Source: Carcharhinus amblyrhynchos
Lineage: Eukaryota
Reading direction: 5' to 3'
DNA length: 64,000 nt
Assembly (NCBI GenBank): GCA_965287045.1
Contig: OZ336885.1
Coordinates: 62,310,001 to 62,374,000 of the forward strand
Shown here piece after piece: positions 8,561 to 53,443 of the stretch. Within the stretch, counting starts at the first letter, position 1. Every line of letters begins with the position of its first letter. The translations under genes were made by a program, and so were the position numbers. Below the pieces are notes generated by a model, which did not search any database, was not told the DNA's origin, and was given only the letters and a program-made list of their open reading frames with translations.

Positions 8561-8569
8561 CAAGTTTGT

Positions 8570-9592: not shown

Positions 9593-9608
9593 ACATTTGC
9601 AGCTATCA

Positions 9609-24860: not shown

Positions 24861-26380
24861 AACATATGCCGTTATCAGAAAATGTTAAAATGCAAAATAC
24901 ATGGCCTACGTTTCTTCGAAGAACGAAATATAACTTCATCTGATGTGAGTGAACACCATGCGCTGGAATGCATTTCCCCTGTTTACTGCCCAGATTGCTG
25001 AAGGTAAATTCGCGGATCATCGAGTGTCTGCCAGCTGGAAAGATGGAAATGGGTTAATACAAAAATGGGAAGCTTATAGAAATTGGAGGTGCCAATAAGT
25101 TAAGCTTGAGGATATCGATGAAACAGTGCAGTGGTACTTCACGTATCGGGACCTGGTGTCAAATCCTTCCGCAAACGTTTGCAATAGCCTATGATTAAGA
25201 CCAGAACACTAATGTGGAAATCTCAATTTGAGCTCGACATTGAATTTTAGATTCCAGAATGTCATGATCACTCGCCCTTACGTGATGTTTAACTGTGAGA
25301 TCATGAATTGATCCCTCCTCATTATGCAATACGAAATCTTCAGCAGTTTGTTCCGTGGTTCATTTTTTTCACAGAAGCAATCTTCAATGCATTCAATGTA
25401 CTTACCACCAAAACTATCATTCACAGCTGTTTAACTAATTTGACCACATTTTAACATCAGCTATAATTAGAGCCCTACCTTTCCTGCAAACTCCCTAACA
25501 ATTCCTAAGTTATGATCTGCAGAGCTACAGATTTTATTTTCCCAGCTTAATAATTTTCTACCACCAGGAACATACCATTTTTTTTTTGCCATTAAATAAT
25601 ACTGCATATTTTAGAGTAGTATTTGAGATATGTTGTTGAACAGTATTCGTTGTAGTAGTTGGATGCACTCTGAGTCTGTCTACCAGCACCCATCTCTTTC
25701 TTCAGTGCAGCATCACAATTTCTCCAACTGTCTCGAAAGTCAATGTTAACCTGAACTACAGTTGTTCTGCTGTTTTCCACTGAGCTATTGTCGTGTGAGG
25801 CTTGATGATATTATTTGCAGTTCCAGCAATGTGACGTGGAAGCTGGGTTGACAGAGAATGTTCAAGCACAAATTCTGCAATTCCAGTTGAGAAAAGCTGC
25901 GCCCCCTTCCCCCCCTCTGAATTTCCCATTGGAGTGTGTTATGGAATCAGTATATTCCTTTGAACTTCTGTGTGGACGTTTCTCCGAGAGTTTCTGTTTT
26001 CAAAATTGCTGAGTCCATCAGAATTATTAGGAAAAAAAGAACCCTGAATATCCAGCATCAAAGAAAACATTTATCCTCATATGCAAACTTGTTCCAGAGA
26101 TAACATCATGTGTATGGACCGCTGCACATAGGGAGAACAAAGATTGCAAGTTACTAAGTATTATACATTGCAATGTCAAAGCTTAATTTATTTGTAACAT
26201 TAAAGTTTTTTTTTAAATATATTGTATATGTTGTTTAACTTATTTTTAAGAGGACAAGTGAAACACGTTGTTTGCTCACCTTCGTATAAAAATCAAATGT
26301 AGAGTTTGACGACTATTTCAAATGTGCAATAGTGTATCTGTTATATATCTTAACATTTCCAAAACTATTCTGCATCTTGC

Positions 26381-29300
26381 TGTGTGCCTTGATTGGGGTC
26401 TATTTGTAATGGTACCCCGCATCTTGGGATTAGTTCCTCAGCTAATATTCTCGCCACCGTAGTGGCTTGAACTTCTTTTAGCCGGGAATGTCTCTACCTA
26501 TCTGGTGAATTGTTCAATTATCACTAAACAGTAAGTCCTCTCTTGTGACTTAGGAAGAGGTCTTGTAAAGTCAATTTGTAGATCTTCCCAGAGATCCTTA
26601 GGGAGAGGCTGGTGCGCAGTCCTGGTTTTTACAGACATCCTCGGTTATACTGGGCACAAATTACACACATATGTCTGTACCGTGCAATATGCTGTCACAT
26701 TCCTTTCCACCACCACTTCTTCCCTATACTGATTGTCATAGCATCTCTTCCCCTTGTGACAGTTCATGATAAAACTGCATCAGAGAATGCTTCAAACATT
26801 ATGGCGCTAGAACTTTATCATTTAATCCCCATACACCCGTTTCGCCAGGTGTAGCTCCTTGAGCTTTCCACCTTGCACGCTCCTCTTCAGGTGTATCAGA
26901 GTGTAGCTGTGACATGTCTGTTGGGGGGCTCCACTGTAACCGACGCGGCCGACACGGCTTCCACTTCCCCTGTTTCTAAAGCCAAATGTGCTGTTTTGTC
27001 GGCTGACTAGTTTCCTTAAAAAAAAACCATTCGGGGCCTTGCTTACCTAGTTCCTTTTAATGTGCCTTTACCTTCAATATCATGGTTTCAAATGGGAGTT
27101 CGCTGGCATCAAATAAGGCTTCGATTAACTGTCCATGCTTGACTGGAGTGCCTCTCCTTCTTCCCCAAACGGTCGTATAATCATGCGCAATTCCAAATGC
27201 ATATCTACTGTCGTTGTGAATGTTGACCCTACTTTCCGCCGCCTCAGCAAAAGCCTGGATCAAGGCCACGAGATCTACCACTTGTGCTGACATACCTCCT
27301 CCAATCCTTCCTGCTCGGACCACTTGTAAGTTCGTGTTTACCACATCCCATCCCGTTCGCGGTAACACGCCTACATACTTCCGTGACCCAACCAAACACA
27401 TGGTTTCCCCCAGTGGTTCCAAGGGCACATCCTTTATTCTATTTTTCTCTGTCTTCTCATGTGTGTTTCCACGCGTGTGTAGTTTCACTTCACGTAACAT
27501 TCCTTCGGTGGGGCTCTCTATAATGCCCCACCATTGTGTTGGACTCATGGGGAAGGGGGGCACTGTCTCCCACTTCTCATATTTGAGACAGATCGTAATT
27601 TTCGTGTATGTAACATTTCTCCCAAGGCATGTTTGGTGTGAAAGGCAATATTACCTATCATTACAATGGACTTGCAGTCTTTTACTGTCCATGCCGTGCA
27701 ATCCAATCAATACGGGGCCCTGGGCAAAAGAATAATATCCCACCGGCCACTGTTTGTCCCCATGGGTTTTGGTTATCACCGCCGAATAGTATCCTCCTTC
27801 ATTGTTACAATAGATATGAATATCCCTATTAGCGTCTGGTAACCCAAGTCCTGGGGCCGACTGTAATCCTCCTTTTAGTTTACTACATCCCTCTTCCTGT
27901 TCTGATCCCCACTCCACAACTTCGAGAGTGGGTGTCCCCTCTTATAATAGCTTTTGGAATGGCTCAACTATTTTGGCGTATTCTGGTATGAATTTGTGGC
28001 TGTTATTAAACAATCCCAAAACCTTCCTTACCCCTCGGAAAGTTACTGCCCTTGGCATTTGTTTCTATCGCGTTTTCCTGTCTACGGGCATTTCCCTGGC
28101 CTCTCTGGATATTGAATGTCCCAAATATAATATGGTCTTTTTGGGGCTTGCCTTAGTCCTTGATCTTCTAAGTGCTTCAAGGCCAAGTAGTTTGAGAGAC
28201 TATCAAGATGTCGTCCACTTACAGTAAAATGGTGCCGCCTTTCGGGAGTTCCGCTTGTTCGAGTATCTTACTAATTGTCCGATGAAATATACCCGGGCTG
28301 TTATGGAATCCCTTAGGGAGCCTTGTCCATGTATACAGCTTATCACCCACTGTGAAGGCAAATTGATTCTGTGAAATAACATCCAAGAGGATGGACCAAA
28401 ACCCATTGGCAATGTCTACTACTGTAAAAAAAAATCATTGGATGGTAACAATCGGTTTAGGGTGTGGGGGGCGGGGTGGGGGGCTGGCCACGATGAGATG
28501 CCGTTTAGCAGTTACTTTATTTAAACTCGTACAATCAATGGTTAACCGGTAACTCCCATCCGGTTTGGGCACCGGCAAATTCGGGGATTTGGTGGTACTC
28601 GTGGTCTCCCGCAGGATCCCTTTTTCCACCAATGCCTTCACAAGTTCCTCAGCCACCTTCTCGGCTTCGGGCTTAATCGGATATTGTCGGTTCGGTTTAT
28701 GCTCCGGAAATCCCACTGTTTTGGGATCAATTTTAATTAACCTGGTACCTATGTTTTTTTTGCTCAAGTCCCTGCGACGGAGGCGCATATGGTCTCAAAT
28801 CCATTGTCCTCAAATCGCCAATCGCGTGCTGTCGCAGAGACAGCATGGACGATTTCCAAATATTTTGCATAGCCTACTAACTTGACGGGGTCAGGTCAAT
28901 TCACAGTGTCCAAAATTCATTAAAACGTAATATTCTTTTATGAATTCATTCACCATAATTGTTCCTTCATTGCTCTTACTCACATAAAATTTCATGGGTA
29001 TATACAAATTATTTAATTCTACCAGCGTGGTTTCACTTAGATAGTCTGGAGTTCTCTGCCCGTTAATTCCTCTCACATAAATAATTTAAGCAGTTGTGAG
29101 TAAGGGTAAGTCTGTGGTGGATATGGAGGCTCCCGTGTCCACCAGCATCTCACGTTGTCTGCCTCCTACTTTTGGAGACGCGTAAAGCGTATCTTCCTTG
29201 TTACCCGTGCCTAAGGGGGCTGTTGACCTTCTGTTTGGCTCTTCCGTTGCGGTGGGAGACGCTGGGTTACGTCGACCATGTTTGCTCCAACAAGTGGCTT

Positions 29301-30100
29301 CAGTATGTCCACGTTTGTTGCAAAATTGGCATCTCAGCATTTGTTTCTTAGTGGCCCAACAGTCCCGGGCGAAATGTCCTGGTTTCCCACAATTATGACA
29401 AGTCCCCTTGATCCCATTAGTCAAGACTGTGTGTTCCTGCTTTATTCTTGGATATTGCTATTCGTCTGGTCTGTCCTTAATTTCAGAAGCCTATTCCACT
29501 AATTCATCATAATCCTGTGAACGAATGACTTCCATTTTAAAGATTTTGAGAAACACTGGTGACAGCCGTCTTTAAATGCCTGGATGAATACGCTATCTGT
29601 ACGGATGTCTTCGGGCAACCCCGAGCTTTGCTGATAGAACTTAAAACGTCTCTCCCCATATTCAGATGCCCCTTCACCTTTCTGTTACTTAATATTTGTA
29701 ATTTTGGGTGAGTTGGTTGGCAAATTACCCAGCACACGCTGAACTTCTGCATTTAACCGACTAAATGGTTCCGGTTGAGCCTTCACTTCTGTTGTTAACT
29801 CGACTCCGTGTATCTACGTTCCCCCCACCACCCCCCCCCCCCCCCCCCAACCCCGCACCGACCCCCGGCAATAAAGCCAAGAGCGGTCGGCGGCGTCCTC
29901 TCAGTCCGCCCCGTCATCCATCATTCTCCATTTGTCCGTTCGGCAGGAGGCTCGTACCAACTGATGTATGTTCGTAAGTGTAACTGGTGGTCAACTCAGA
30001 CCAAAATGTGGCATTCGCACTCCGGAGCCGAAGAGTCCCCAGCTGCATCAGGATCTCGTGTCTTTTCCCGGGCTTAAATCGGACAATTCGGGTACTTATA
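26381..30100 (-). mobile_element. Truncated endogenous retrovirus (gag-pro-pol), spuma/loki-like RT
   Basis: Two CCHC knuckles and protease LVDTGAS (ORF 29086-29424). RT motifs QYPIKPEA, PVPKPDGSYRL, DIANGFWS, WTRLPKGFHNSP and *VDD (28210-28221). RNase H SAQ...NIHNDSRYAFG (27057-27400). Integrase WEDLQIDFT...LIPRCGVPLQIDPNQG cut at 26381. Many frameshifts. Confidence 0.92.
29942..29963 (-). promoter_or_regulatory. Candidate LTR end and primer-binding site
   Basis: Minus strand reads ...CA-GT-TGGTACGAGCC upstream of gag; tRNA species not identified. Confidence 0.4.
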
Positions 30101-30167
30101 TATTGTCTCAGCTTTTCTGCAGGTCTGAATAAGCGGCGCTATTATTGAGCTATTACTTCATTTCAGC

Positions 30168-30767: not shown

Positions 30768-33700
30768 GGAGGGAAGCAAGTTTGACAAAAAAGAAAATTA
30801 ATTTTAATCAGCACATTTGAACGAGAATACGCACAATCGCAGTGACAGAGAACTATGTAGTGTTTGCGGCATTGCTTTTAATGGCGTGAGACCAGCGAAC
30901 TGAAGGGTTGATGTCTGTTACGATTCAATTTCCTGAATTTGTTAAAGATTGTGATACGTGTTTGAGCTTAATTTGTCCAACTTGGTGCACCATGTTTTGG
31001 GAAGGAAACATTTCCTTTCTGGTCAGTGTCTATGGAAGGCCACTGAGAAGGGAGACGTTGCTGGAAGACAAGGTCGATTTCATGGTATCACCGACTCTCC
31101 GTGCATTGCGTCCCGCCTAAATTTCCCAGCGGAGAGAAAGTATAGATGTTTGGCCTTTGGTGGTAATTAACAGTTAATCCTACCGGCGGGATTTTCCATT
31201 GGTGCCAAATTCCTAGAATCCTAAAATCATGAAATCTCAACAGTGTAGTAAGAGGATATTCGCCCAGCCAGTCTGCACGGACAGCAAACCAAACTAGATA
31301 TTATGCTCAGGTTTAACCCTGCAGATCCCCCTGACAATAAAGGCGAGATTATACGGTCTTCCTGGAATGAGGCCAGAAACTGACATTTATATCTTCCGCC
31401 CTCGCCTGCGTCCGTTTTTTGGAGGTTTGGGTGGTAGAAATCCGGCGTAGGTGTCAATGGACCATTTTGATTGACATTTACCAGCACGGATTTGGAGAGT
31501 GTGAGGAAATTAGAGGACTCGGAATATTCGACGCAAACACGGCAAGAATATGCAAATTCCACCCAGGAAATAACTTGAATTCGGAACTGAGCCCTCGTCA
31601 ATGGAGCTCTGAATGAACTCACCAAATTTCCTGAAGGCCACCGCCGCAACGGGCAAATAAAGTTATTTGCAGCTGCGTCAGTTGGGCAACATTTATTTCC
31701 TGCATCTGCTATTCCATCCAAACATTGGCATCGAGGGAATGCATGAAGCAAACAGCAAATACAGTTATCAGTTTCCTCAGTTTTTGGGCAATGTTGAATA
31801 TCGAGTGTAGTTTAATGTTTGGATTCGCTGAAATTGTACGAAACATTCTGTGCCAAGATGGCTTAAATGACGTTACTGATTATTGATAAAACTGTCCTTG
31901 TAGCAAGTAGATCAGAGTGAAGGCGGGCACACATGACGAATAAGTTCACTGGCTTAGAGCTGCATTGCATTAGTTAATCAAACTCACAGTGAATATATGG
32001 GAACAAAATGATTTTGCGATCTCCGGAAATCGTCGTTCAACGGATCATTTGTTCTTCGAGATTTGGATGTGAATGCGAGCATTCAAAGCAGGAAATGATG
32101 TTACAACTAATCTAACATATATTGAAAGGTAATTAATTTCGTTTGCAGTCCAGAAATCAAAACAAACTTAAATGTAATTTAATATATAATGAGACTTCCC
32201 CACCATTGAGAATCAGTTAAATAATACATCCTTTTTTCTGAGAAATATAATTGCAGTCATACCATCTTCATAACGCCAACTGCGTGTTTTGTTGTAAAGC
32301 AAGCAGAAAAATGGACACGATTGAGGGTAAAAAAAAACACGACAAGATGTGCTGGGATATGTCTGTAAATGAGCAACGTGCTATTGTGTTACTTTGTAGA
32401 ACTCTTTGTAGAAATTAATTTCGGATCTCCTAATTCCTATGCTCATTGATCTCTCCTCCGATTCACCGGGACGATCGCATTGGGGAGTGAACAGGCAGAT
32501 TCCAAAATACACGCACAAAATACACGATCGCTTTCCTAAAATGCATAAAGAAGCGGTGTAAAACCCGAGAAGTTTAAACGCTGTCTTTATCCCATAAGAT
32601 TTTAATCTGAGACAACACTGTTATATACAAGGTCCGCCTTGTTTCCTTGAACTTTGAATACTTCATGTATTGGGATACCTGATGTTGTCTGTGCCACTCC
32701 GCAAGTTCCTTGTTGAACGGGTTATGAGAGGGAAGAATTGATCTCTTTTCTGCAGAGGCACATCAACGTTTTCAAAAGCAGCCACTTAACAAACCAATCA
32801 ATACCTACATATAGGTGCTGCAAGTTTCTTTGATGAGTGTGTTTTTACTTGCTTCTGTCGGTGTCGCAGCACATTTACGGTGTGTTATTCAAACAAAACT
32901 TCCAAACGCAGTGTGACTTTTTACGAATGCAGACGTCTTGAAATGTTTGGCTGCCAATTAATTATTAGCAAATGCAGCAGACAAATGAGGCATACATACT
33001 GTCCCAATCAAAGCACCGTATGGACGATTTCATATCCTTTAGTGAATTAGCGTAAACGTAGATTAGAACTAGGAGATTGTTCGACAACATTTTCATACTT
33101 ATTAAAACCGTGTTTTCAAATTATTTGCATCTGGATCAGCCAAAAAAGCATTACTTCCTCTGAGCATCTGAACATCGATATGTCATCTACAACAGTGAAA
33201 TACTCCCACAGGACTAACTTCGTTTTCACATGTTAAAGCTAACCATGAAACTTGAACCAGTGCCAATACTATTCAGAGGCAAGTTGGCAGGAGGCACGTA
33301 TTCAAAGACAACTCTCAGCAAATCCTCGGCTTTCTAAAGTAAACACAATTAGACAGTTGATAATGTTTTTCTGCAGATGTCCCGTGTAACGTTTTATAAT
33401 CCGTTCCACTCATATTTATACTTTGTTTGCATGCTTATCTGTTACATGTAGACGTGATTGTCTTCTGGTTAGCTGCTCTTCCTTAGCATTGGGACAATAG
33501 AACGTCACGAAATGTTGTTAACTTCTGTAGGGTCAGTAAATTATTGCAAATACAGATTGAAGTGTTTAAGGAAAGTCAATGTAATGCATTTTCGGAAATA
33601 CCGACTTATTTTTTTAAAAAACGTTATTCCAATCCAAGCAAGTCAAATTAAATCCAATACAGAGTCCCAACAAGTTGGGACATTCCCGATCCAAGCACAC

Positions 33701-33892
33701 AAGACAGGGCTCTCACCACCTGTCTTGGGCTTGACCTTCATGATCGATGCTGATTGGAGTAGGTGTAGCTCCTCATCCAAGGCTTGATCTTACTTGCATC
33801 TTAGTCAAAGGGCCGAAATGCCGCTTTTAAAACAAATGCTTCAAATGAAGCTGAAATGCAACCTCATGACTTCAACCAAGTGCAGCATGTCA

Positions 33893-33931
33893 ATACTACA
33901 CTTGATCTTGACAAAAAAGCCGAGAAGCGAT
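33893..33931 (-). ncRNA. U2 snRNA 5' fragment (nt 1-39), not a full gene
   Basis: Reverse complement ATCGCTTCTCGGCTTTTTTGTCAAGATCAAGTGTAGTAT has 35/39 identity to the vertebrate U2 5' end. Confidence 0.9.
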
Positions 33932-34214
33932 ACAGATTTGTTTTTTTTGTTCACTTTATTCCAATCCAATCAAGTCAAATGAAAGCCAATTCAGAGTCCC
34001 AACAAATTGGGACATTCGCGATCCAAGTTGACAAGACGGCGCTCACCTCCTGTCTTGAGCTTGATCTACAAGACACAAGAGAAGGTGTAGCTCCTCCTCC
34101 AAGGCTTGGTCTAATTTGCATCTTAGCCCTTAGGCCGAGATGCCGCTTTAAAAAAAAATGCTTCAAATGAAGCTGAAATTTAACCTTACGGCTTCAACTA
34201 AGCGTAGCATGAAA

Positions 34215-34252
34215 ATACTACACTGATCTTAGCCAAAAGGCCGAGGAGCAAT
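34215..34252 (-). ncRNA. U2 snRNA 5' fragment, second copy
   Basis: Reverse complement ATTGCTCCTCGGCCTTTTGGCTAAGATCAGTGTAGTAT (2 substitutions, 1 deletion vs U2). Confidence 0.9.
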
Positions 34253-35285: not shown

Positions 35286-35357
35286 AACATTCAATGCTAT
35301 GGAATTTATGTCCACAACAGGATGAACATCCGAAATGATGTAACATACTGAGTAATA

Positions 35358-35686
35358 AGAACATAAGAACATAAGAAATAGGAGCAGGAGTAGGCCATCT
35401 AGCCCTTCGAGCCTGCCCCGCCATTCAATAAGATCATGGCTGATCTGTTGTAGCTCAGTTCCACTTTCCCGCCCTCTCCCCATAACCCTTAATCCCCTCT
35501 CTTATCAAGAACCCATCAACCCGCTTCTTAAAAAATATTTAGCGAGGCAGCCTCCACCACTTCAACGGGCAGAGAATTCCAGAGATTCACCACCCTTTGA
35601 GTGAAGAAGTTCCTCCTCAACTCCGTTCTAAACCGCCTCCCCTTTATCTTGAGGCTGTGCCCCCTAGTCCTACTGTCTTTTTTGAG
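35358..35686 (-). mobile_element. Young 5'-truncated CR1 with 9-bp target-site duplication
   Basis: Nearly identical to 49676-50010; (AAGAACAT)n tail; TGAGTAATA at 35349-35357 and 35683-35691. Confidence 0.95.
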
Positions 35687-36074
35687 TAATAGCTGAAATG
35701 GAATATATCGGCCCTTGGAGGATTTTGAATTATTTGAATATTTTGAATATGACGATTGCCGTTATATTGATTTCACAGAAACTCTTCTCCCCACATCACT
35801 CCTAAAATCTTTTACGCTCTTACGCCCGACGCTATGTTGCAGGCTTTCAGCTAACATCCAAAATCTCAACCATATTTGCTACGTTACAAACACTATGCGT
35901 TTTAGTTGCACCTCTGCCTATAATAAATGGAAATTCGCCTACTGGGCTCAGTATTGTATTTATGACAACAAAAGCAAAACAGCTGTAAATCGCCACACAA
36001 TAGATTCTTAACTTTGTCTGTGGTGGTATTAAAAAAAAAGCTAACAAACATTGAGCTTCCAGATGCAATCATAT

Positions 36075-36415
36075 AAAATCATAGAGAACCGACAGTGCAG
36101 AAAAAAAAAGCCATCTGCCCCATCGTGTCTGCATCGACCACAAACCCACACAGGCCCTACCGATCTTTCCCTACACATTTACACGCTAATTCCTCGCAGC
36201 TGAGGACACAAAACGGTAATTTCAGCCTGGCCAGTCAACCTAACACGCACATCTTTGGACTGGGAGCGGAAACCGGAGCATGCGGAGGAAACCCATGCAA
36301 ACACGAGGAGGATGCACAAGTGCCAAGGATACAGTGACCTAAGCCAGGAGTCGAACTCAGGTTACTGAGCTGCGAAGCAGCAGTGCTAACCTTTTTGCTA
36401 CCCTGCCGCCTATAC
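36075..36415 (-). mobile_element. HE1-like SINE
   Basis: GGAAACCGGAGCA.GCGGAGGAAACCCA.GCA core, tRNA-like head (GTCGAACTCAGG...GCAGCAGTGCTAACC) and CR1-type tail. Confidence 0.85.
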
Positions 36416-36754
36416 TCCAAATGCATTGTGAAATATACTTCGGAATAATACTTCGTACATTTTGTCCATGATTTTCCTGAAATCCATTTCGGGGAGCACC
36501 ATTCATTAGCTCGTTAAATGCAATTCTTGAACAAACCTATCAAATTACCTTGAACAATGTACGTTTGGTGAATCTAGGACGTTTTGTTTCGGTCCTCTTT
36601 CCTGCATCAAGTCCATTTATATTCAATTATTAGGGAGCATATTTAATATACCGACTGTTTTTGATGGCACAATTACAAAGCAATGGCACTGACAGTTATC
36701 CAGATTCAAATATTTATCTGTATTCTCTCTCGATGCAGGTATTCAACCTGCGCT

Positions 36755-36831: not shown

Positions 36832-37181
36832 ATCTGTTAACGATGCATTGCATGACATTAGAAGTGCAACTCCGTCAGTGTAGACTTAACATACAACAAA
36901 ATATCAGCTATATCCGTTCAAATGCCAGTTATTTTTAAAACTGTCCTGTAAGCATTGTCTGTTTTATAAAAACATGATTACTTGCATTAAAATGTCTATA
37001 TCTTGTATTCAAATGGCTTTGTTCTGCAGAAAGCGACAAACTCTGAGAAATGAAAATACGTCGCCATTCTTTTTTGCTAGTGAAACCAATCATTAATTTG
37101 CCATTGTTTCTAGCCATATCGTTGTTGGAAAAAGATGAAGGTATGTTTGCTAACCTTTTCTTAACTGAGTGCGTGTAACAG

Positions 37182-37501: not shown

Positions 37502-37729
37502 GTAAGGTGTCACGATTTTACAAAAGTCCAAAAACTTCCACTACGAAGAAGAGCGCATAATCCGCAACTGCGTGACACTAACCTAGTTCTACTAAAAGAA
37601 ACGGATCACTTAAACCATTATCAAGATCATTTTATAAACGCCCTACTTTACGATACCTAGATATAATTGAGCACTACTGGATATTTTATTTGATTAATTT
37701 ATTAGTGCCAAAAGGAGGCTAACAGTAGC

Positions 37730-38338
37730 ATTGAAAATGTGTTCATGGGACAATCCCCAGTCGCCACACTTGGACGCATGTTTGCGTACGCTTTGTGAGC
37801 ATTTGGCGTTGGCAGTTTTCCGAACGTTCACAACTGTCGGAACGTGGGAGGACATCAGAGCATCTGGAGGAAATCCACGCATGAAATCGGAAAATGTGCA
37901 GACTCCGCCCAGTGACCCAATCCGGAAATCGAACTCGGAGGCATGAGCGCTGTGACGCAACTGTGTAATGACTGTGCCGTCGTGCTGCTTGCCTAGCTAT
38001 ACGTTTAGAAGGGATTGTTTCAAGTACTTTACTTTTTTGTAGGTTATTCTTCTATCTGAATGGGCAACGGATTTCCGTGACGTGGTGCCGTGTTTACCTC
38101 TCACCACAGACTTTGGAAGACAAGCAGAATGCATTCATTCTTTCACGTTATGGGGTTATACATCAACAAGTGTCTGCCAGTATTTGCCTGCGCGGCAGAT
38201 CCGGGACTCAATTTGTATGACAGTGGACTTTTTCTTTTTCAAAACTGCAGTGTAAAGATCGGAAGCTGAATAAAGATACATAGCTTGCAATGGGGTTGCA
38301 ACCGGGCCAGGTACAGCCACGCGCGCCCATCTCACAAG
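37730..38338 (+). pseudogene. NKp30/NCR3-like germline-joined VJ Ig exon, split by a SINE and frameshifted
   Basis: VFMGQSP (to 37759), then the SINE, then one frame AIRLEGIVSSTLLFC-(14 aa)-W in SVTWCR (Cys 38038, Trp 38083), followed by QIRD/LNLYDSGLF..CSVKIG and GVATGPGT. Order and spacing match a V domain with a J-like G strand. Confidence 0.7.
37760..37990 (-). mobile_element. Degraded HE1-like SINE inserted in V exon
   Basis: GTGGGAGGACATCAGAGCATCTGGAGGAAATCCACGCA...CAGACTCC..CCAGTGACCCAA..CGGAAATCGAAC motifs. Confidence 0.75.
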
Positions 38339-38495: not shown

Positions 38496-39072
38496 AACTC
38501 AAGACTTTGAGGCGAAGTCTCGAAGAAACAGGTGAGGAAATTAGTCGACTCAAATTTCCAGTGCGTTGCTGATTTACTTCTCCGGGACATATAATTGTGT
38601 ATTTTTCAATTTGCTAAAGGTAGTCAAATAGACATTCCGATGGTCTCGTCGATTAAATGAAACGAAATGTTGCATGCCCATAATAGACAGCAAACAGTAG
38701 TTGAATGATCATTTATCGGCTTATTAATCGGGTGATAGGACGCGATGTTTACTGAGACACCGACTGTTTTTAAGTGTTTTACTATGTCCTAATGATTTAT
38801 TGTAGAGCAAAAGCTGATCCAAAGTCAGAAAGGTAAGTTAACATAACTACACATTATGTCGTTCTGTTATTTGGCAGTTGAATTAATTATGATTCTCTGG
38901 TAGCCGCGTTGCCACAATTCATATGTTTATTTGTTTTAATTTTCTGTACGTTTCAGAGCTGCTTGCGAGATGTAAACCCGACAGTGAGTAAATATATAAA
39001 TATATCAACAAAATATCATGCTTCGCTCGGCGGTGTGCGAATGGTAATATGATGCTCTGTTTATCAGATTAA
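38496..39072 (+). other. Micro-exon cassette A: 38496-38531 (36 nt), 38806-38832 (27), 38957-38983 (27), terminal 39068-39072
   Basis: AG acceptors with GT donors (gtgagg, gtaagt, gtgagt), all phase 1; the spliced frame is open: ELKTLRRSLEETEQKLIQSQKELLARCKPDN*. Confidence 0.75.
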
Positions 39073-39169: not shown

Positions 39170-39527
39170 TTTTTTAATGTTATGTTATGTTCGCGCAATC
39201 CCAGACTGACTCTGAGAAATCCATTGATGGGAGCTTCGAATTTACATGGCCATTCCATTATCTCTATGTGGATTTCAATGTAATGAAAACATGCATAGTT
39301 TTTTTTTTAATCCCCTTCGTGAAGAATGGCCGTTTTAAATGCATTTCAGATGGCAAAACGCGCAAAGGCATGCCACATGGATTTAAATACAGGAAGAGAG
39401 ATACATAGTTTAAAATGGTAGTACGACCGAAACTGACGGCCCCAAAGCATCACGGCAATTAATACATGAACATATATTGATCGGTCGAGGAAGGCGAACG
39501 TTCATAATGTTCACCGTTTTAGAAATG
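39170..39527 (+). pseudogene. Possible decayed V(J)-like exon
   Basis: AQSQTDSEKSIDGSFEFTWPF start and IGRGRRTFIMFTVLE end, followed by gtaagg. Confidence 0.3.
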
Positions 39528-40891
39528 TAAGGAACGACCATCGAATTACCATTACTTCAATTATCAACTGATTCGCAAAAACATTAAAGCTGTTCATCTG
39601 GACAATTAATATTACGACATTCTCCACAAGATTGTTTGGATGATGGCTCAAGCAGGGTGCAGGCGCATCCAATAGCGGCTACGCTATCCCCATTCTGCAT
39701 GCGCTTTGCTAGATATTTACCGAAATTTGACGCACGCTTGAGTACATGATAATACATCGGAAAACAGGCCAAAAGCGGAAGAGTAAACCGGGCTGTCTGT
39801 GAAAGGAAATCGAACAGATTTTTATCGTAATTATAATCGTGACATTTCATCCAGTGAACATTGCAGATTGGCATTGCCCTGGTGGATTTCTCCCGGATCA
39901 ATACATTTAAGCATCAAAGTAATCCGAATCATCAGTGAGGTCGGGAATGTGGTGCTGCTGATCATTTACCATAGTTTCTGTACGGTTGACCCGTATTAAG
40001 AAGGTCTATTTTGCTTTTCAATATAGTCATTGGTACTCCACATGATGTGTAGGTCATGAAAGTAAGGGCCCGGGTTTGGAGAAATCCTACAATGGTTAAA
40101 AGAAACGGTTTCTTTGGGCACTTCATGGCATGGATAGGTCAGAGAGGGACTTTTGGCATCCAACAATCTTCTACATGACATGGGAAGTTCGGAAACGGTA
40201 CAGAGTTTGTAGCTGAAACGCAAGTTACATTTTACCGAAATGCGATCACAACGCTCTTGCTAGGGTATTTTTTTCAGAATACGCGCATTTGGATTCCGTG
40301 GAGAAGTAAGAGTGGATTTAATGATCATTGGTACTGATATGCACCGTCAATGTGATTGCAGGCGAATGGTTCAGAGAATCACAAGCAGGTAAACATATAA
40401 AACAAAAATCGGGTTCAGTCGTTTTTGCCAGCATGCGTTATCAATTGTTTAAATAATTCAGAACATCTAATGGCTACGCAAAGACAGACCAATTTTAGAT
40501 CAACGTCCTTTGCCTTTTAGTGAAATGTTTCTCTCCTTGTCAAAGATGTTTCAAGTAAGCGTTTAAGCCTAACAAAAATGTTTACAGATAAGCATGCAAG
40601 TAAAACGGCAAGAGCTGAGACGATGCACACACGCAAAAAAAGAATCGTGCGAACGAAAGGTAGAAGCAGAAAATAGGTTTGTCAACGGAACTGACTGACT
40701 TTTTTATTTTCATTTTCTGTTTGAAAATCAAATATGGTATACGTACTGCACATGTGTCGCTCGGTTGCCTTTGCGATTTCATAAACACGTATCCGAAAGA
40801 TCATCCGCATGTAATTGGTGATAAAATGCTTAAAGTTTGTTTCATCTTCAATGGCGTCTGGATGAGCAACATGGCTTTAACATGGTTTCAG

Positions 40892-41195
40892 TGAAATTTT
40901 AGCAGCGAGAAAAGATTAAGGTTACGAGAGATATGCATTTCGAGGAAAGTTATTAAATGGAAGAAGCCGTTAAGTTGTGTGCCAAGATCAATTTTACTTA
41001 CAAGTCCAGAAGGGATGGTTTGTACCTACTTGCTAATGCCAGGCACTATATTTTTTTGAATTATTGTTACAAAAAACTAGAGCAAGTAGTTGGAAAATCG
41101 AAGGCAGTAAACAACGTGATCGAGGATACCTTTAAAACATTAGGGGAAATAAAACATGCTGATGGAAGGGGAACAGAACGATAGAAAATTATTTG
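40892..41195 (+). pseudogene. Decayed V(J)-like exon
   Basis: tttcag| acceptor; NGRSR*VVC...KGWF...RASSWKIEGSKQRDRGY in one frame and HADGRGTE in another; leader-like TDFFIFIFCLKIKY G|gtatac upstream (~40680-40736). Confidence 0.45.
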
Positions 41196-42449
41196 AACTT
41201 GGAACGGAAAGGCTCGATACTTGGCAGCTAAGAGAAAGATAACTTTCATCGTATCCTGAGCGCATTTTCGGTTATCAAACAATCGTCGGGGGGTCGTGGG
41301 AGTGGGATTTTTAGCAGATATTCATGAAATTTAGGCACGTTGTTCCTGATGCACTGGAGAATTACATTTGCATGCGCTGAATGGTAAAATTATATTTCCA
41401 CAAAAAAATGGAAATGGACAAATGTAGAGATGCAGTCCATCCTTGTTATGGGAAAGAAAATACGTTGGCTGTCTTTGCATCAGGGTATTTTATTTCCGAG
41501 ACACGCATTCTGTGGTCCACTGAAACAGGACACTAGTAAATATTTTCGACGATTTTTAGAAAATCAATAAAAAGGTGACTGTTTTAATGATCCAAAGAAT
41601 GTACAATGTTGTATGAAAGCCTATGAATGCGGCTGATGCGCTTCCTGTATGATCGTGAGAATAACTCAATTATTAATCAAACGATAATTTCATTTGCACA
41701 GCAGAACAGCGTACGTTTTTTTTTCAAATATTTACCGATGAAGCCTTTGGATGAAGCAATTCATGTACCTTGCCAGGAGATTATCGCAGATATTTTAATA
41801 ATACCAACGATTATTATCACTTTAAGTTTGTTTTTGTTTTTGTAATCACTTTAATCATAATTTAAGACGTTTTGTTATATTCATTTTGGCGTAAGACATG
41901 TGTGGAACAAATACTGATACGTTTCCTTTTCGTTGTCGTATCCTAAATTGTCTCCTCTCTTCCTCTTTATCCCTGTCTACCATTCTCTCTCAATCTACTT
42001 TTCTCCCTGTCCTTTTTTTCGCAAATTGATAAATGGAATAGCTAGGAATATTAAACTAGAGCCAGCACTGTCGTTACGAAAGCAAATCAATGCGTCTACT
42101 TACTGTAATGACGAAGGAAATTTAGGATTTCAGATACGACTCTCAACAACTTTAACAGATGCACCATTGAAAGCATTATTTCTGAATGTATTAGAGTTTG
42201 CTGTGGTTCCTGGGCTGCCCAGCACCGCAATGAAAAAATATTTTTAAAAAGGTCATCAATATAGCCCAATACATCACACAAACCATCCTCCGATTCACAG
42301 ACTCTCTCCGCACTTCCTACTGCCTGGGCAAAACGTTCAGCACAATTAAGAACCCCGCACGTTCCGGAAAGAAGAGGTGATTCTCCCAAAAGTGCTGAAT
42401 TGGTGCGAAAAATGTTCTAGATCACGACTATTTTCTCAGTTTAACTTCA

Positions 42450-45400
42450 CGCTTGAATCTGCCCAGTCTCTCCACTGCAAAAGTCATAATCTTGAATATC
42501 ATTAAAATCCGGTGAGGGAGGGAAGGTGGGCAGACGATTCGCGCCAAAGAGCCAAAAATTGGCAGGATGAGCAGGAATCCTTGTATGCATGCTTTACTGG
42601 GAGATCGTTGAAAACACCTCCCCGCATTCAGATCACTGCCATTCAACCTCTACATATATAACTTGCCTCATCCCTTGTCCACACAACAGGAAAACAGACA
42701 TTGCCTTCGTCATCGCTAGCCCACACAAATCCACAAGGCATCGCTGGCCTCATCGTTGGCCCCCACAGCCTCCCGACAGGCATCATTGGCTTTATTGCTG
42801 ACCCCATCCCCGCATCCCCCGCCCACTCACAGACATTGCTGACCTCATCTCTGCCCCCCACAAACCCCCTAAAAACATCGCTGGCCTTTTTGTTGAACCC
42901 ACAACGCCACCCCCGCCCCTGCAGCCATCGGTGGCCTCATTATGTCACACCCAATTTGCCTCCCCAAACATACAGATGTGTCTGCCTCCTCACCTCATGC
43001 CTCCCCGAATCCGAACAATGTAGATACCCGATCCCCCCATCCCTTGAACATACTGCCCTCACTGCTGCCCTACGTGTGTTGACACGCACAACCACAGTTT
43101 GTGATCATTCCCTCTCTTCAATGGGGTTCTTGAGTATTGCACCCCACTGGGCACAGCAGCTTATCGATTCGAAGCCCTGAGTATTGCTCGCCATGCACTG
43201 CAATATGTTAATGCTTGCTATCCACCTTATGTTCCACAGGAAAATAACATCCAGAACGCACGGGAAATGTCACAGATTAGAGGTCGCCTGCCTTACCAGC
43301 GGCAACAAACCAGCATGGAAAAGTGTGCGATTCAACTGGCAGGGCGTGCTCGAATAATCAACGATAGCCAAGTCGGCGTCCAGCAAGCAAGTGAGCAGAA
43401 GCGCATCCTCATCCAAGGGCCTCCTCTCAATAAGTGTGATGCTGCATTGAATGCCATGCCTCCCTCCCGCTAATCTGCGATTTTTTTTTAACAGCCCTAG
43501 GCGCAAAGGAATCTAGCCCTTTGGATGTTGCCTGAGCCCCTGCTGTTCTGGAGCAAACTGCCAACAACAGCTCGGATCAAGCCTTGGAAGGAAGCACTGA
43601 GGAATCCTCCGAGGACAGCACCACTGAAGCGTCACCAGCATGTGCCATACAATCCACCAATGCAGAGACAATCACCATGGTGGGGATCTTTAGTTTTGAG
43701 ACTTCTGGGTTATGAACTGATGAGCATATCACAGATTTCAATTCACATCGGGTGGAAGCGGACTCATCCGAAGGCTCGGGAACATGGAGGTCTGCCAGAG
43801 CCCAGGAGACAGCTATCCCTAAGCAAGCTGCTGGGCGTCTGTGTTTATTCCTCCCAAGGTTGGTGGAGATGCATCAGGAAACCCGAGGATTTGGGGAAGG
43901 GCTGTCAGCAATCATAATGCGAATGAAAGGCTGTGTTGTGGAGTCAAACAGAGCACTGGTGCAGGAGGTGGTGCCAGAAAAAGTGTGAGATTCAGGCAAA
44001 AACTGCAAGGGTGGTGGCCGTAGTGAAAAGTCTAGCTCAGGATCCTGTCCTCATGGGTGAGAGGCTCCAAGCCATTTTGAGACATATGGGTCACGGGCGA
44101 GTGTGTTTGCAACATCCAAGAGGCACAGCGTTCAATGATGATGGACGTCGATGGAGCATGTGAGAGACACTGCTGGCCTGGGTTGGGACTTTCACTGTCA
44201 TCCTGAAGACACAGCAGGTCGTGACTGTGCGCCTATGCAACTCAGCCCAGGTTTAGATGGGTAGTACTGAACGGCTCCAGGGCCTGTTTCGCTCACAGAA
44301 TGCTGTAGAGGAGGGGATCTGGAACATTGAGGTATGTGCTCATGGCATCATGGAGCAGTCACATCTAGGCCTTCAGCAGAGCTTACAGAGGGCAGAGCTT
44401 TTGGAGCTCAGTCCTACTACCCTGGCACTCCATGGAGTGCCCCTGGGGCCTCTGGACACCTCAAAAGAGGAGGAAGGTCTTGAACCCATGTCGGAATCTT
44501 CTATCCAGGTGATCCCAGAGGTCCCAAGGCATTCCGATTCCCCTCTTCCTCACATCGGGGCATCTCATGGCAAGAGACATGAACAGGGTAGCACCAAAAC
44601 AGTGCCATTCTCAAGTCAGCCGGGGCTTTCCATGTCCCCGCTAACCCAACGGACGTCGGCCAAGGGCATCTCAGGCAATGGGGCGTGCATCACAGCTGGA
44701 CAGCTTCATGTTTGATGTGCAGACTGCATATCACCGAGAAGAAGCAGTAGACAGTACAACGTTAGAAACACGGGTTAAGTAGAGGACACAGGTGAAGGTC
44801 AACAATCGTAAGGGTTTGGATATCATTTTTGATCAGAACATAACTTGTTAATTGCATATGACACATTGAAAAATATGTCTTTGATTCGTTCCCCCAGGCC
44901 CCATCACCCACCGACACTCGACCTCATCCCCCACCCTCACAGCTCACTATCCCTGACTCTCAAACATATAGGTGCTGTCTGTTGGGCCTGGCAAATTGAG
45001 CTGCATGTATTGGAGTCCCTGTCCGACATTCGCCAACATCCACCAGACAACTGGTACGAGTGATACCCTCTCTTAACCAAGCAACATGTGTCTCAAACGT
45101 TACAGTTAGGATGAACCAGAGTCACAGTGTGTATTTGGAGTGCAGGAAGGAGTCAGATTTGAGTTGCGCTAGGGGCAGGATACCCATGTGCAAAACAGTG
45201 TGTCATTGTACAGCCTTCAACCAGTATTTGCTAACGTTGCCAGTCCAAACACATCAATCGGGTCAGCTGTTCTGGGGAGTATGGTGGTGGGATGTCTGAA
45301 GCAGGGAGAGTGTAATGTGGTGATTTTAGGTCTAGTTCTGTTTGGCAGGCGGGCCGGGGGGGCGGGGGGGGGGGGAGGAGGGAGGTGGAATGTCAGTTAC

Positions 45401-48400
45401 ACTTGCTCCTGGATGTGGTGGATCTGTGTTGGCTGCAATCCCCTCATTGCACAGCACCAGCTAGTTGAAGTGGGCTGCAATCAAAGCGTCCCTGGCTGTC
45501 CATTTCTGCCGGACATCTGTCGTTACCGCCTGGCCTGGCACGGCTCGTTATTCATATGGTGGCATATCCATCCCACCCACTCTGCACTCAAACTGTTAGT
45601 TTTCCTCCTGCTCCAGCTGGTCTCCCCACTGCTGGGCGATGTTGTGGAGTGTGTAACAAACCATAATGATGCGTGAACCACGCACAGGGTCATGCTGGTG
45701 AGGCCCCCAGAGTGGTCCAAGAAACGGTACGTCATCTTAGGCAGGTCAATGCACTTCTGAATGATGGAACGGATGACTACAAGGGCCTCATTGTAGCGAG
45801 TCTCTGCCTTTGTCTCGGGTATTCACACAGGCGTCATCAACCTTAGCAGGTAGCCTTTGCTCTCAGTAGCCATCCCTGCAGCCTGAGCTGGTCTTCAAAG
45901 TGCACAGAGATGCCTGACCATCGGTCACAAATCTGTTATCTGGGTGGCGTGCATCGACCTGCATGATTGCTTGATGGTCGTAGATAACTTTGCATTCATG
46001 GAATGGAATTCTTCCTGTTCAAAATTTGCTGCAACTCTCTATGGGAGAGCGGGGGCACAAGACGATGTGTGTTTCATCCACTGCACCTTGCGTATTCAGA
46101 ATCCCAGCAATGGATGCAAAGCTGAGGGCCCGGGCCTCCTGCTATACCTGGCCCATATTGAAATTAATTAACAGCTCTGCCCGGGTACACACAAGGCATC
46201 TGCGACCTGTCGCAAACAACTGTGCATTCGGCCTGGGACCCAAGCCACATCACCTTAGGGTGCCTGGAATTATCCACAGGCAAAGAAATTTAGGGCAGCC
46301 ATCACCTTCTCGTCCACAGGGATCGAGTTGCCCGCCCCTCCCTGAGGTGCCACGTTTGAGAGTACCTCAGAAATGCGTCGCACTGTGGTCTTGGACAGGC
46401 ACAGCCAGTGATGGCACATCTCACCCAAAAGGGCATCAAACGAATTGTGGGGCCTGAACTTGCTTGTGTCGTGGTTCCCCAAGACGACAACTTATTTAAC
46501 CCGATTGAAACAGAGAGTCTGAGTTGTAATCTTCCAAGCAGTAGACTTTATTTTCCAGTACAAGAGAAATAAAGCCGGGAGGTCCGGAACACTCCGCAGA
46601 GCCCTCGGCTTACAGTCTTTTTATGCACATTTCAGCTCCATATCTCAAGATTCTTATCTCGCTTTTACAATGCGACCTCGTTTAGCCACCATTGTTTCTG
46701 TACTGACCCCTTATTTACCTTGCTTGAGATTGGTCACCCATTGTTACATCTCTTTTCCTCTCGAAACCATGGTAGTTACATCCTTTGCCCTTATCTTTAC
46801 GACTCTGCTTGTACAACAACAGTGGTTTAGCTGACTTAGGCCGAATGTGAAGAAAAACATGCTCACTTTATTCTTTCCTGCTTGTTACAATCATATATTA
46901 AGCTGGACAGCTGTATAGTACCCATTGTCTCCCCAAGTGACTGCTGTTTGCATTTGCTAATAAGTAACTGCTATACTGCTTCTCTGGGCCTCCTGCTTTG
47001 ATCACATTTGCTACACTTGATTATATTAGGTTACAAATCAGCTATACTTGATTACCCATCCCAATTCTACTTCAAGGAAGACACTCTAATACTATCCGTG
47101 ATTCCATACTTCATACCCAGTTTAGGTACAATTATTCAGTACAAATTCTCTAAGCACTAACATGCTTACATATTGAGTACAAATTTCCTTACACTTGTCA
47201 ACTGCAACCTCCACCTTCTGTGCACTTTCTTCGGAGGCCGGCTATCGACCTCCCTGCCCTCAGCAGCAACCCCCTGCCCTCCCTACTGTTGGTAGGGGGT
47301 CTACAGAGGGTCTGTTGGTGCCTGCTCCTGCGATGGTTTCTCCACACCCGCTAAATCCTGAGCCACTGCCCCTCTGCCACCAATATGGCCAGCTCCAGAT
47401 CTAGCAAAGTAAAATACATCTGCACAGTGGGGTTTAGAAAAAAAAATAGAATGACTGGGTTATTCTAATCATATGCACAGACCAAGCAGCATCCCAATCC
47501 CTCACTGGGGCCAAAGAAAAAAAGAAAACACTTGAGTAGCTGGAAACACCACGCAATCAATGATAACATGCACACTGCAATTAGGGTTGTGTGGCATTCT
47601 CATCATGACAAATACTGTCAGCGACTATGCAGGTCAGTGTGCAGCCCAGGTCAATGCATACCGTGGAGCCTTTGTTATGTGTGCAACTGCAGCCTCTGTT
47701 ACAGGCATATGTTGCTCATCCACGTTGCAGTGACAAACGGCGAAAGAACACCAGATGAGTGTCAGTGACAGCAGATTCCACTCAGTCCATGTCTCTGCAC
47801 CCTGGACTGAGCAGGAGCTGCTTCATCCGGTTGGATCTCAGCTAGTACATGAAACATTCCTCCCCCATTCTGGAACAGCAGCACACAGCCGAGATCCTGA
47901 GTTCAAACAGGGGGAAGACAGTGCCAGTGCAATGTGGGGGAGGATGAGTGGGAGCTATCGAGGCTGCTTCCCACACTGCGTGACAGCGCTGCCTGGGGGA
48001 GAGGGGGGTGGTGAGCCGGGGCCCATGTGCTGCCTCCAACGCTGCGCTGCAGATGTGCCTGGGGTGGCGGCCGAAACGAAAGCTCTCGAGGCTGCCTCCC
48101 ACACTGAGCTACCCAGCTGCCCACAGAACCGTTGTGGAGGGATGGGGATCGAGGGAGAGGGCGTGGATAGGCGGGATTCTCTGACGAAACTTCACCAAGA
48201 GGGCTGTGAGGAATTTGAAGCCCCCCACCCCCCCCCCCCACCCCCCACAAACACATACCCATCCGTGTTATCACTGCTCGATTGGCCAACACCTCACGGC
48301 TGCAGGAGTAAGGCTATTGTGCATCTCCGGGGCTTGCCTGCAACATTCCACGCACCCCGCTAGAAGCACTTACTTCCTCACGCCAGTGCACTGCTTCTCA

Positions 48401-48683
48401 GCAAGGTTGAGACTTTTAAGTACCGACTCCGATTTGCGCTAAATTTATATCGCGAAAAAGATAGGAGACGTGAACGCGGGAGGAGATTGCCGTGTGGATC
48501 CCTATAATGGCATGTTAACGTATGTAAAGTCATGCGAATCAGTGGCCTGCCTGTTTTTCCGGGCTCCCGGCGGCTCCCTTGTTCCCCATTTGTGAGATGC
48601 AAGTGGGGAAGCTGCAAAATGGCCAGCACGTATATCTCTCGATCCACCAGGAAAGGTGCGGGTTGCGATGAGAGATTCAACCC
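42450..48683. mobile_element. Degraded PIF/Harbinger DNA transposon(s)
   Basis: Minus-strand HARBI1-like transposase remnants (FRPHNSF..., IPVDEKVMAALNFFACG, RFLDHSGG; ~45420-46466). Plus-strand Myb/SANT-partner-like remnants (~43240, ~47880-48060). Weak TIR-like ends GCTTGAATCT / AGATTCAACC. Possibly a mosaic of two elements. Confidence 0.75.
46467..47193 (-). mobile_element. Solo LTR inserted into the Harbinger transposase
   Basis: TGT...ACA termini; 4-bp TSD CTTG (46463-66, 47194-97); minus-strand TATA-like (~46620) and AATAAA (46547-52). Confidence 0.85.
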
Positions 48684-48684
48684 C

Positions 48685-48905
48685 ATATCCTCTTCCACGT
48701 TCTTCCGTCGTAAAAAAAAATATACGAACGTTTGCGGACAGGTACCAAGGAGCTCAAGAAGATTTTGTTCCCTGCTGCCATCAATGGACCCACCTCGAAT
48801 TTAGTTGATCTATCGCTGCACCTTAGCTATGACTGTAACAATGCATTCCCACGTCTCTCCTTTCCTCCTCTATGAATGCATGTGACAATAATAAATCAAA
48901 TCAAA
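48685..48905 (+). mobile_element. Rex1/Babar-like LINE 3' fragment
   Basis: CTTCCGTCG..AAAA.ATAC...GTACCAA..A.CTCAAGAA...TTCCCTGCTGCCATCA; tail shared with 50975-51430. Confidence 0.6.
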
Positions 48906-48989
48906 TTATGGAGGCTAAGTCTAGATTCCACATTTATTAAATGAATGCTAGCCAAGCTAGACTCGCCCTTGAAGGCATTTATAACGAAA

Positions 48990-50830
48990 CAGTTCAATTT
49001 CTTACTTTAGTACCTGCTGTACCAGCATGCTAGATGTATTTTGATTCATGAAGTCACCCACATCCCTTTGCACACGATCACCCCTAACATTCTTCCCATT
49101 AATATAATAAGTTGCTGTCCCCATTTTTTTAATGACAAAATGCATTATCTCACATTTACCCGTATTGAGTTTCATCTGCAACATCTTGGCCCACTCTCTT
49201 AATCAAACGATATCGACTTGTAAGTTTCTTCTTTGCACATTTCAACTTACTGTCCAGCCTAATTTTGTGCATTTGCAGATGTGACTATGGAGTCGTATAT
49301 CCTTGGATTAAATTCATTAATATGGATTACAAAATGCTGGAGGCCAATGACCAATCCCTGTGGCACCCCACGAATTGCTTCTTGCTATACAGAAAAAAAG
49401 ACATTTATCCCAGCTCTCTGTCTTCTTTCCATCAGTAAGTCACTTGACAAGTTATTGAGTTACACCTAATCCATGCGATCTAACCTTGTGAATTAACCTT
49501 TTGTCCAGCTTCTTATCAAATTCATTCTATAAGTCCAGATATATTACATCTGCAGGATCCCCATTATCCAGTTTGTTTGTTACATCTTCAAAGAAATCTA
49601 GCCCATTGTCAAACGTGATGTGGCGACATCAAACCACGCTGATTCTGATGGATCGTGTTTTGAAATTCCAAATAAGAACATAAGAACATAAGAACATAAG
49701 AAATAGGAGCAGGAGTAGGCCATCTGGCCCTTCGAGCCTGCCCCGCCATTCAATAAGATCATGGCTGATCTGTCGTGGCTCAGTTCCACTTTCCCGCCCT
49801 CTCCCCATAACCCTTAATCCCCTCTCTTATCAAAAACCCATCAACCCGCTTCTTAAAAATATTTAGCGAGGCAGCCTCCACCACTTCAACGGGCAGAGAA
49901 TTCCAGAGATTCACCACCCTTTGAGTGAAGAAGTTCCTCCTCAACTCCGTTCTGAACTGCCCCCCCTTTATCTTGAGGCTGTGCCCCCTAGTCCTACTGT
50001 CTTTTTTGAGCGGGAAGAGTCTTTCCACCTCTATCCTATCCATCCCATTCATCATCTTATACGTCTCAATGAGATCTCCCCTCATTCTTCTAAACTCTAA
50101 CGAGTACAAGCCTAGTTTATTCAGCCTCTCCTCATAGCTCAACCCCCTCAACTCCGGTATCAGCCTAGTAAACCTCCTCTGCACTCCCTCCAAGGCCAAA
50201 ATATCCTTGCGCAGGTGCGGCGCCCAAAACTGCACACAGTACTCCAGCTGCGGCCTCACCAATGCCCTATACAGCTGCAGCAAGACCTCCCTACTTTTAT
50301 ATTCAATCCCCCTCGCTATGAAGGCCAGCATCCCATTCGCCTTCCTGACCCCCTGCTGCACCTGCAGGCTGGGTTTTTGCGACTCATGCACAAGGACCCC
50401 GAGGTCCCTCTGCACTGTCGCCTGCTGCAGTTTTTCGCCACGTAAGTAATAGTCCTTCCTACCATTCTTCCTACCAAAGTGGACCACCTCACACTTGCCA
50501 ACATTAAATTCCATTTGCCATTTCCTGGCCCATTCGCCCAGCCTATCTAGATCCTTCTGCAGACTCTCCACACCCTCCGCACAATTTGCCTCCGCACAAA
50601 TCTCCCAATACCGCTTTCTTGGTAATTCGATCTACCATTTTCCCAACAGATGTTACACTAATAGGTCTGCAACTTACCACATTTTGCCACTCTCACTTTT
50701 TGAATAAGGACTTACACTAGCAATTTTCAGTCCATTGGAACCTTTCGTGAACCCAGAGCATTTTGGAATACTATAATCAATGGATCCGCTATCTGCTGCC
50801 ATTCTGAACCGTGTATGGATGGGGATTTGT
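48990..50830 (-). mobile_element. Older CR1 (48990-49670, 50600-50830) with nested young CR1
   Basis: ORF 49002-49184 MKLNTGKCEIMHF...QRDVG; RT sequence resumes after the insertion. Confidence 0.75.
49672..50590 (-). mobile_element. Young 5'-truncated CR1 LINE with uninterrupted 263-aa ORF2 C-terminus
   Basis: ORF 49780-50571 (LQKDLDRL..WQMEFNVGKC..LEYCVQFW..RGHSLK); (AAGAACAT)n tail. Confidence 0.97.
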
Positions 50831-50974
50831 TGCCTTGCATGCACGAGATGGCTCTGCGCTGTCGGGAGTTCTGTTCGGTGGATCTCCAGAACATGCCCCC
50901 GCTTGGATGAGTGGAAGGCTGGTATTTGGATGACTTGTCTGAAGTCATGGCTGTGTATGAGCCGCGAATGAGCT

Positions 50975-53311: not shown

Positions 53312-53443
53312 NNNNNNNNNNNNNNNNNNNNNNNNNNNNNNNNNNNNNNNNNNNNNNNNNNNNNNNNNNNNNNNNNNNNNNNNNNNNNNNNNNNNNNNNN
53401 NNNNNNNNNNNNNNNNNNNNNNNNNNNNNNNNNNNNNNNNNNN
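53312..53443. other. Assembly gap (132 N)
   Basis: Direct reading. Confidence 1.

Follow-up and report, generated by a model that had tools for sequence, protein, structure and literature searches.

Positions 37996-38315 of the stretch of DNA analysed here (64 kb, referred to throughout as the window) are read, with an even chance of this being right, as the remnant of a long-dead immunoglobulin (Ig) V-type exon, not assignable to any one family and situated in a decayed gene cluster. On this reading the remnant would be non-functional now, and the cluster would be a set of duplicated, decayed surface-receptor-like genes in a genome that is probably that of a shark or ray. A short interspersed repeat (SINE), the absence of RSS motifs and the presence after the SINE of ordered V-like motifs in the same orientation as the exons nearby together make a dead V-type exon plausible. 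We infer a common origin of the V-like fragments in one V exon: the gene would have lost its function, its exon would then have drifted neutrally, and this drift may have left it with in-frame insertions, a stop and three frameshifts. A SINE in antisense orientation would have landed at or near the 5' edge of the exon, duplicating 10 nt.

An initial annotation had described the same region as an NKp30-like, germline-joined VJ exon killed by a SINE insertion. Such a killing is not inferable, as the stretch carries no fewer than four further lesions, too many for a single sequence to show whether the SINE arrived before or after the gene died. The main contending explanation, which we hold to be just short of an even bet, is chance: the region would be an intron of a decayed gene built of a hydrophobic exon and heptad exons, its Ig-like words would be stitched together over three frames, and the SINE alone would be real.

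Research on single-exon VJ genes treats them as relatives of the gene split by the RAG transposon, and intact shark genes of this kind (NCR3, UrIg and UrIg2) are already known (PMC12227049, PMC10751288). Since working shark versions are known, a dead copy adds little. The literature search, outside which the primary shark NCR3 and B7 papers lay, returned no SINE-disrupted shark NCR3 copy, and so provides no evidence of novelty. At best, the stretch is a dead member of the VJ kind, already known in type; at worst, it is a SINE beside a coincidence.

An old antisense SINE beside the V-like stretch

A short interspersed repeat occurs five times in the window, and its copy at this locus is real, old and antisense to the V-like stretch. 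A profile built from the four other copies matches 37814-37990 (E 4e-19; identity to each of them 63-67%), a longer SINE profile matches 37802-37989, and firm homology extends over 37802-37990 overall. This confirms as a dispersed repeat the insertion proposed in the initial annotation, but gives no support to the junction with QSP that was described with it. The element is a tRNA-type SINE on the minus strand, probably near full length (326 nt, 37666-37991), whose right end is its head and whose left 135 nt are presumably part of it. Retroposed copies lose their 5' end, not their 3' end; since this copy has an intact head and 5' loss is the usual course, it should extend well leftward.

A candidate target-site duplication of 10 nt lies on either side of that extent, with its left copy at 37656-37665 and its right copy at 37992-38001 (both read on the plus strand). 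The copies agree at 9 of the 10 positions; among 391 random flanks, 4 did as well, so that the support is modest. The same rule applied to a near full-length sister SINE (36068-36415, 348 nt) gives a 9/10 duplication at 36058/36416. On the other hand, similarity of the left part to the tails of the sister copies was faint: one of four comparisons gave 10/500, a tail-only profile missed it, the pooled and anchored tests were null (569/2644; 60/300, 176/300 and 209/300), and so were ten tail-end comparisons (best 77/500). With direct tail similarity weak or absent, the left end is placed by the duplication and the length of the element. Pattern searches for the A and B boxes of Pol III detected the two in the sister at 36.4 kb and neither in the locus copy, in which a B-box-like word aligns with that of the sister.

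Placing the left end at about 37666 by the duplication means that QSP (37751-37759, plus strand, frame 2) is probably inside the SINE and derived from it, rather than being the A strand or preceding sequence. The initial annotation had set the SINE directly after QSP. This does not hold: firm homology begins some 40 nt later, the best duplication puts QSP within the element, and excising 37760-37990 as had been proposed leads to a stop two codons past QSP. The surroundings of 37760 yielded no target-site duplication, as 27% of shuffles score equally there. The right copy of the duplication also contains the AG that would serve as a phase-1 acceptor at 37997; as an acceptor it scores 2.2 (rank 179 of the 3518 AG sites), against -0.9 for the left copy.

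The repeat is a putative HE1-like SINE. HE1 is derived from a tRNA, is known from zebrafish and elasmobranchs and has a consensus of 402 bp (PMC2911107). Like HE1, the repeat of the window (about 330-350 nt) is dispersed; its head is tRNA-like, and its 3' part is similar to the ends of the LINEs in the window.

V-like fragments and the case for coincidence

The V-like stretch begins with 63 open codons in frame 1 (37996-38184, plus strand, AIRLEG to SASI), in which a B-strand-like Cys (38038), a C-strand-like Trp (38083), a D-strand-like Arg (38146) and an E-strand-like ASI share a single frame; four hallmark units in one frame of this length argue against chance. The canonical Cys-Trp spacing claimed earlier stands (15 codons, same frame), and Trp and Arg are 21 codons apart. 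Farther along the plus strand lie QIRD (38196-38207, frame 0), the F-strand-like LNLYDSGLF..CSVKIGS (38207-38266, frame 2), followed by a TGA at 38267-38269, and GVATGPGT (38292-38315, frame 0). Every word of the peptide quoted in the initial annotation is thus present, but the words are spread over three frames, and reading from AIRLEG to GPGT takes three frame changes, one stop and three extra F-strand codons.

In the usual DxxxYxC motif, Asp and Cys are 6 codons apart; here DSG is present, Phe stands instead of Tyr, and 9 codons lead from Asp 38219 to Cys 38246. The two Cys codons span 208 nt, and the hallmark-like units are in the right order, cover the size of an exon and share the orientation of the adjacent exons. 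GPGT (38304) is 58 nt past the second Cys, beyond the stop and a frame change, and the LxV that should follow it is missing.

Some of these words coincide with splice-like signals, as the chance reading would have it. The TLLFC codons form a pyrimidine run into an acceptor-like site at 38043 (rank 46/3518), which the codon of Cys 38038 overlaps, and GPGT overlaps a donor-like site, since its GT at 38311-38312 could serve as a phase-1 donor (score 1.6; it ranks 155th among 3324 GT sites). From AG 37997 to this GT there are 314 nt, both sites being phase 1 with respect to the adjacent frames. That the J-like GxGT belongs to the same exon, as had been proposed, is not confirmed: GVATGPGT is there, but no strong phase-1 acceptor lies upstream and the possible donor splits GPGT. 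RSS motifs with 12- or 23-nt spacers and up to 3 mismatches have no match anywhere in the window (chance expectation 0.88 and 1.02), which agrees with the earlier statement that none is present; their absence is uninformative, since any non-receptor DNA would pass as well.

As the negative database searches described below are weak, a motif-chain test was run, in which ordered generic V-domain hallmarks (residue classes, frameshifts allowed) were scored in the window and in simulated 64-kb windows; its controls, all of them negative ones, were these simulated windows and shuffled unit orders. Rigid motifs gave the locus 20.9 bits, under the null mean of 23.3 (255 windows). Finer units with broad classes and cheap indels, a model designed after the locus had been seen, gave it 45.5 bits; the next locus of the window has 24.3, and none of 582 null windows reached the score (maximum 34.7). 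When the units of this model were left out one at a time, the locus still outscored all 15 nulls in 9 of the 10 runs; with the DSG unit dropped the score was 31.8 bits against a null maximum of 33.9. Shuffling the order of the units lowered the mean to 18.1, the best of 60 orders attaining 44.3.

Other settings were less favourable. Nulls were as good as the locus in 27/60 cases with strict antibody-type classes, 4/60 with broad classes and costly indels, 60/60 with strict classes and costly indels, and between 32/100 and 100/100 over six settings in which a neutral-decay codon model was used together with strict classes. The locus was the best plus-strand locus in 5 of the 11 settings and significant in one. 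Chance is favoured by the ten settings without significance, by the fact that the best pattern of 64 kb was picked and by the negative outcome of every database search; the 45.5-bit score beyond all simulated windows and its stability under leave-one-out speak against it. We regard the motif-chain evidence for a V domain as suggestive.

Pfam returned no family for eight single-frame pieces of the locus (E up to 10), none for three locus frames with stops written as X, and none at E up to 10 for a 90-residue reading of strands B to F across the first frame break; such scans are subject to HMMER filters that drop weak matches. For the B-to-F part, finding no Pfam family after repair is the outcome that the initial annotation had named as counting against a V-set domain. 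Its proposal of a dead V-type exon is left plausible by the ordered V-like motifs after the SINE, but has no profile match. In the PDB, where matches with E up to 10 were considered, the B-to-F reading hit neither an antibody nor a TCR nor an NKp30 chain, and a 21-residue F-strand piece was unmatched. Searches of large protein sets yielded 13 and 9 word-sharing candidates, none of them at E up to 10, and brought up no shark NCR3 sequence; the best score of an Atlas search was 0.80, with nothing Ig. Several matches were set aside: a CDX homeodomain (PDB, E 0.077, from a two-frame profile) and nectin-2 (PDB, E 0.56, best stretch out of register) were taken as chance, two matches among 1.84 billion representatives were both repeat proteins, and a phage tblastn search gave nine records at E 4-8 only.

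The fold predicted from the single sequence of a 74-residue frame is a poor model (mean pLDDT 42.1), with two strands and one helix. Profiles made from multi-frame alignments test little, since the motifs came out misplaced or diluted in them. The database negatives are weak, as a sequence so decayed could fail though real; with SINE copies 63-67% alike, heavy decay and search failure are to be expected.

One of the PDB matches leads to a further alternative, namely that the stretch is a proteasome PSMB8/PSMB5 exon starting from the acceptor at 38043 or a germline-joined Ig light-chain VJ pseudogene; the pair can hardly be credited. The proteasome match covers 27 residues at E 1.2, which is chance level, and its identities are sparse beyond ISV. 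As to the light chain, the Trp-to-Arg spacing is shorter than that of light chains, no antibody chain of the PDB matched, and neither RSS nor constant exon was seen. Germline-joined IgL lambda does occur in cartilaginous fish; "germline-joined" also refers to the RAG-joined shark IgL lambda, distinct from never-split VJ exons (PMC12227049).

Neighbouring exons and candidate families

Upstream of the SINE, an exon-like segment of 111 nt (37030-37140, plus strand; donor rank 14/3324) encodes a 19-residue hydrophobic stretch with a hydropathy of 2.1, where 2.0 is reached by 0.17% of 19-mers; it may be a transmembrane exon or a leader exon, and ATG 37050 is open as far as the phase-1 donor at 37140. 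The next exon-like segments past the V-like stretch are hydrophilic, the first being some 180 nt downstream. These plus-strand, phase-1 exons measure 36 nt (38496-38531, heptad-like peptide; donor rank 3), 27 nt (38806-38832; donor rank 1) and 27 nt (38957-38983), and are homologous to 58725-58760 (20/36 nt, shuffle P 0.0012), 59442-59468 (17/27 nt, P 0.0006) and 59602-59628 (13/27 nt, P 0.0054), with the similarity between 38496-38983 and 58725-59628 somewhat inflated by conserved exon-edge bases. Short phase-1 exons (36, 27, 27, 27 nt) occupy 38496-38983 and 58725-59825, and part of a third unit lies at 12673-12708; the heptad-like short exons are still open and several of their donors are strong. 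The second unit, too, has a hydrophobic segment (55853-55962, about 110 nt) followed by 36/27/27/27-nt exons, and of the two hydrophobic runs one has Lys and the other Arg.

Between 55853-55962 and the short exons of this second unit there is no V-like match, which again favours chance, although a LINE fills most of the interval. No paralogue of the V-like stretch was found within the window; a region pair at z 4.9 (1/66) was rejected, as it was not reproduced (87/300). By eye, E/F-strand-like words occur at 36480-36600 and 55370-55440, about 400 nt before each hydrophobic segment, with no Pfam support.

The family hosting the heptad exons may be butyrophilin/BG-like. As in butyrophilins, chicken BG and MOG, a hydrophobic exon is followed by 36/27/27-nt phase-1 exons, in two units; unlike in them, the V-like stretch comes after the hydrophobic exon, and no Pfam V, C or B30.2 match is seen. 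V, transmembrane and heptad regions are all present in butyrophilins and BG (PMC8813856). The two readings of 37030-37140 have different consequences. If it is a transmembrane exon, the V-like stretch is intronic, between this exon and the heptad-like ones, which is no place for a V exon. Were it a leader, a phase-1 exon of 314 nt matching the phase of its neighbours on either side would run from AG 37997 to GT 38311, the GT of GPGT would be a donor and not a J motif, and a transmembrane exon would find no room. The NKp30 layout, a V domain and then a transmembrane segment with Arg, results from neither. No transmembrane exon was seen downstream of the V-like stretch, the nearest hydrophobic exon being the upstream one.

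Two narrower versions of the dead V-type exon follow, which we consider about equally likely, each of them individually improbable. In the first, the remnant would be the host family's own V exon (B7/butyrophilin/BG-type), in a series of leader, V and heptad exons whose transmembrane exon is lacking or lost; this version is unlikely, even though its phases fit, with ATG 37050 and donor 37140, AG 37997, GT 38311 and the 36/27/27-nt exons all in phase 1. The 185 nt between 38310 and 38496 are too short for a transmembrane exon, no B30.2 or Ig Pfam match appears where expected, and both splice sites are weak.

The second version, a dead paralogue of NCR3 (NKp30) with a never-split VJ exon, is likewise doubtful. 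The order Cys, Trp, Arg, Asp-Ser-Gly, Cys and Gly-x-Gly-Thr looks like that of NCR3/NKp30, RSS are likewise absent, and the short Trp-to-Arg spacing of 21 codons and the glycine-rich run before GPGT resemble NKp30. Unlike NCR3/NKp30, the stretch has no measurable sequence match and carries three frameshifts and a stop, its A strand is gone if QSP belongs to the SINE, and it is followed by heptad-like mini-exons, beginning with one of 36 nt, instead of by a transmembrane exon with Arg. In addition, the PDB matches include no NKp30 chain, QSP is probably in the SINE, and LEG is two codons too far from Cys for the pattern proposed. The name NKp30 comes solely from this resemblance, the match is too weak for it, and we consider the assignment improbable.

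From the literature, NKp30 has one IgV domain and a transmembrane segment with Arg (PMC6514059), NCR3 is a non-rearranging MHC-linked VJ gene for which eight nurse shark accessions are given (MT914154-MT914161; PMC12227049), and in three species of cartilaginous fish the chromosome with MHC class I also carries butyrophilins (PMC12841164). This linkage of MHC and butyrophilins makes the neighbourhood plausible for NCR3. A closer formal parallel to the initial proposal, a single-exon VJ without RSS, is offered by the elasmobranch UrIg and UrIg2, described as non-rearranging VJ-C1 genes (PMC12227049); unlike them, the locus showed neither C1 exons nor a split leader, and no Ig match was obtained in the 142 of 353 open reading frames (ORFs) scanned.

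A more specific proposal, to which we lend very little credence, is that of a non-rearranging VJ exon spliced in phase between leader and heptad (perhaps also B30.2) exons in a butyrophilin-like gene. If true, this would be an exon-shuffled receptor joining an NKp30-type VJ to a coiled coil, with no transmembrane segment, and would represent an undescribed shark family, intact members of which could possibly be found elsewhere in the genome. The stretch would matter only if it pointed to such an intact, undescribed VJ-plus-heptad family. As a decayed copy of uncertain family it is at most one data point on how immune genes arise and die out, and it opens no pending question to testing; the decayed host cluster is the better lead.

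Further observations across the window

The window is repeat-rich DNA of vertebrate type (G+C about 41%). Pfam was applied to the 142 of its 353 ORFs that have at least 82 aa, among which only retroelement domains passed the cut-offs and no intact Ig, B30.2 or MHC gene, nor any MHC marker gene, was found. Another 35 frames with stops written as X covered most of the plus strand of 45169-64000 and three spot regions including the locus, and 15 further spot frames were added, 1-45168 being mostly covered through long ORFs alone; in the frames scanned, no B30.2 or Ig match was obtained at the places expected for the host gene. Rfam gave no match in the window. Possible decayed linker and B30.2 remnants were noted by eye at 15676-16400, 39580-40400 and 60030-60400. 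A weak alignment joins 39497-41206 to 59923-61659 (0/60 shuffles), the latter being largely LINE.

A 10-kb duplication relates 821-11177 to 16673-26381 at 83-85% identity, and both copies carry exon-like segments with strong splice sites (4363-4404, 42 nt; 20359-20403, 45 nt). The minus strand of 26400-29900 holds the remnant of an LTR retroelement, with a zinc knuckle and two RNase H-like domains by Pfam. Beside it, at 30040-30110, a second DSGxY-like word (NSGTY) occurs, with no Pfam match. LINE fragments are also present in the window (RVT_1, Pfam E 1e-4); we presume the LINEs to resemble the CR1 type and the short repeats to resemble shark HE1 SINEs. A 322-nt unit, which has a hairpin-like word inside, is found twice, head-to-tail, at 33624-34249 (81% matches). 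Young copies of a LINE 3' end, 97.6% identical, lie at 35355-35686 and 49680-50010; they show recent retroposition here, alongside the much older SINEs.
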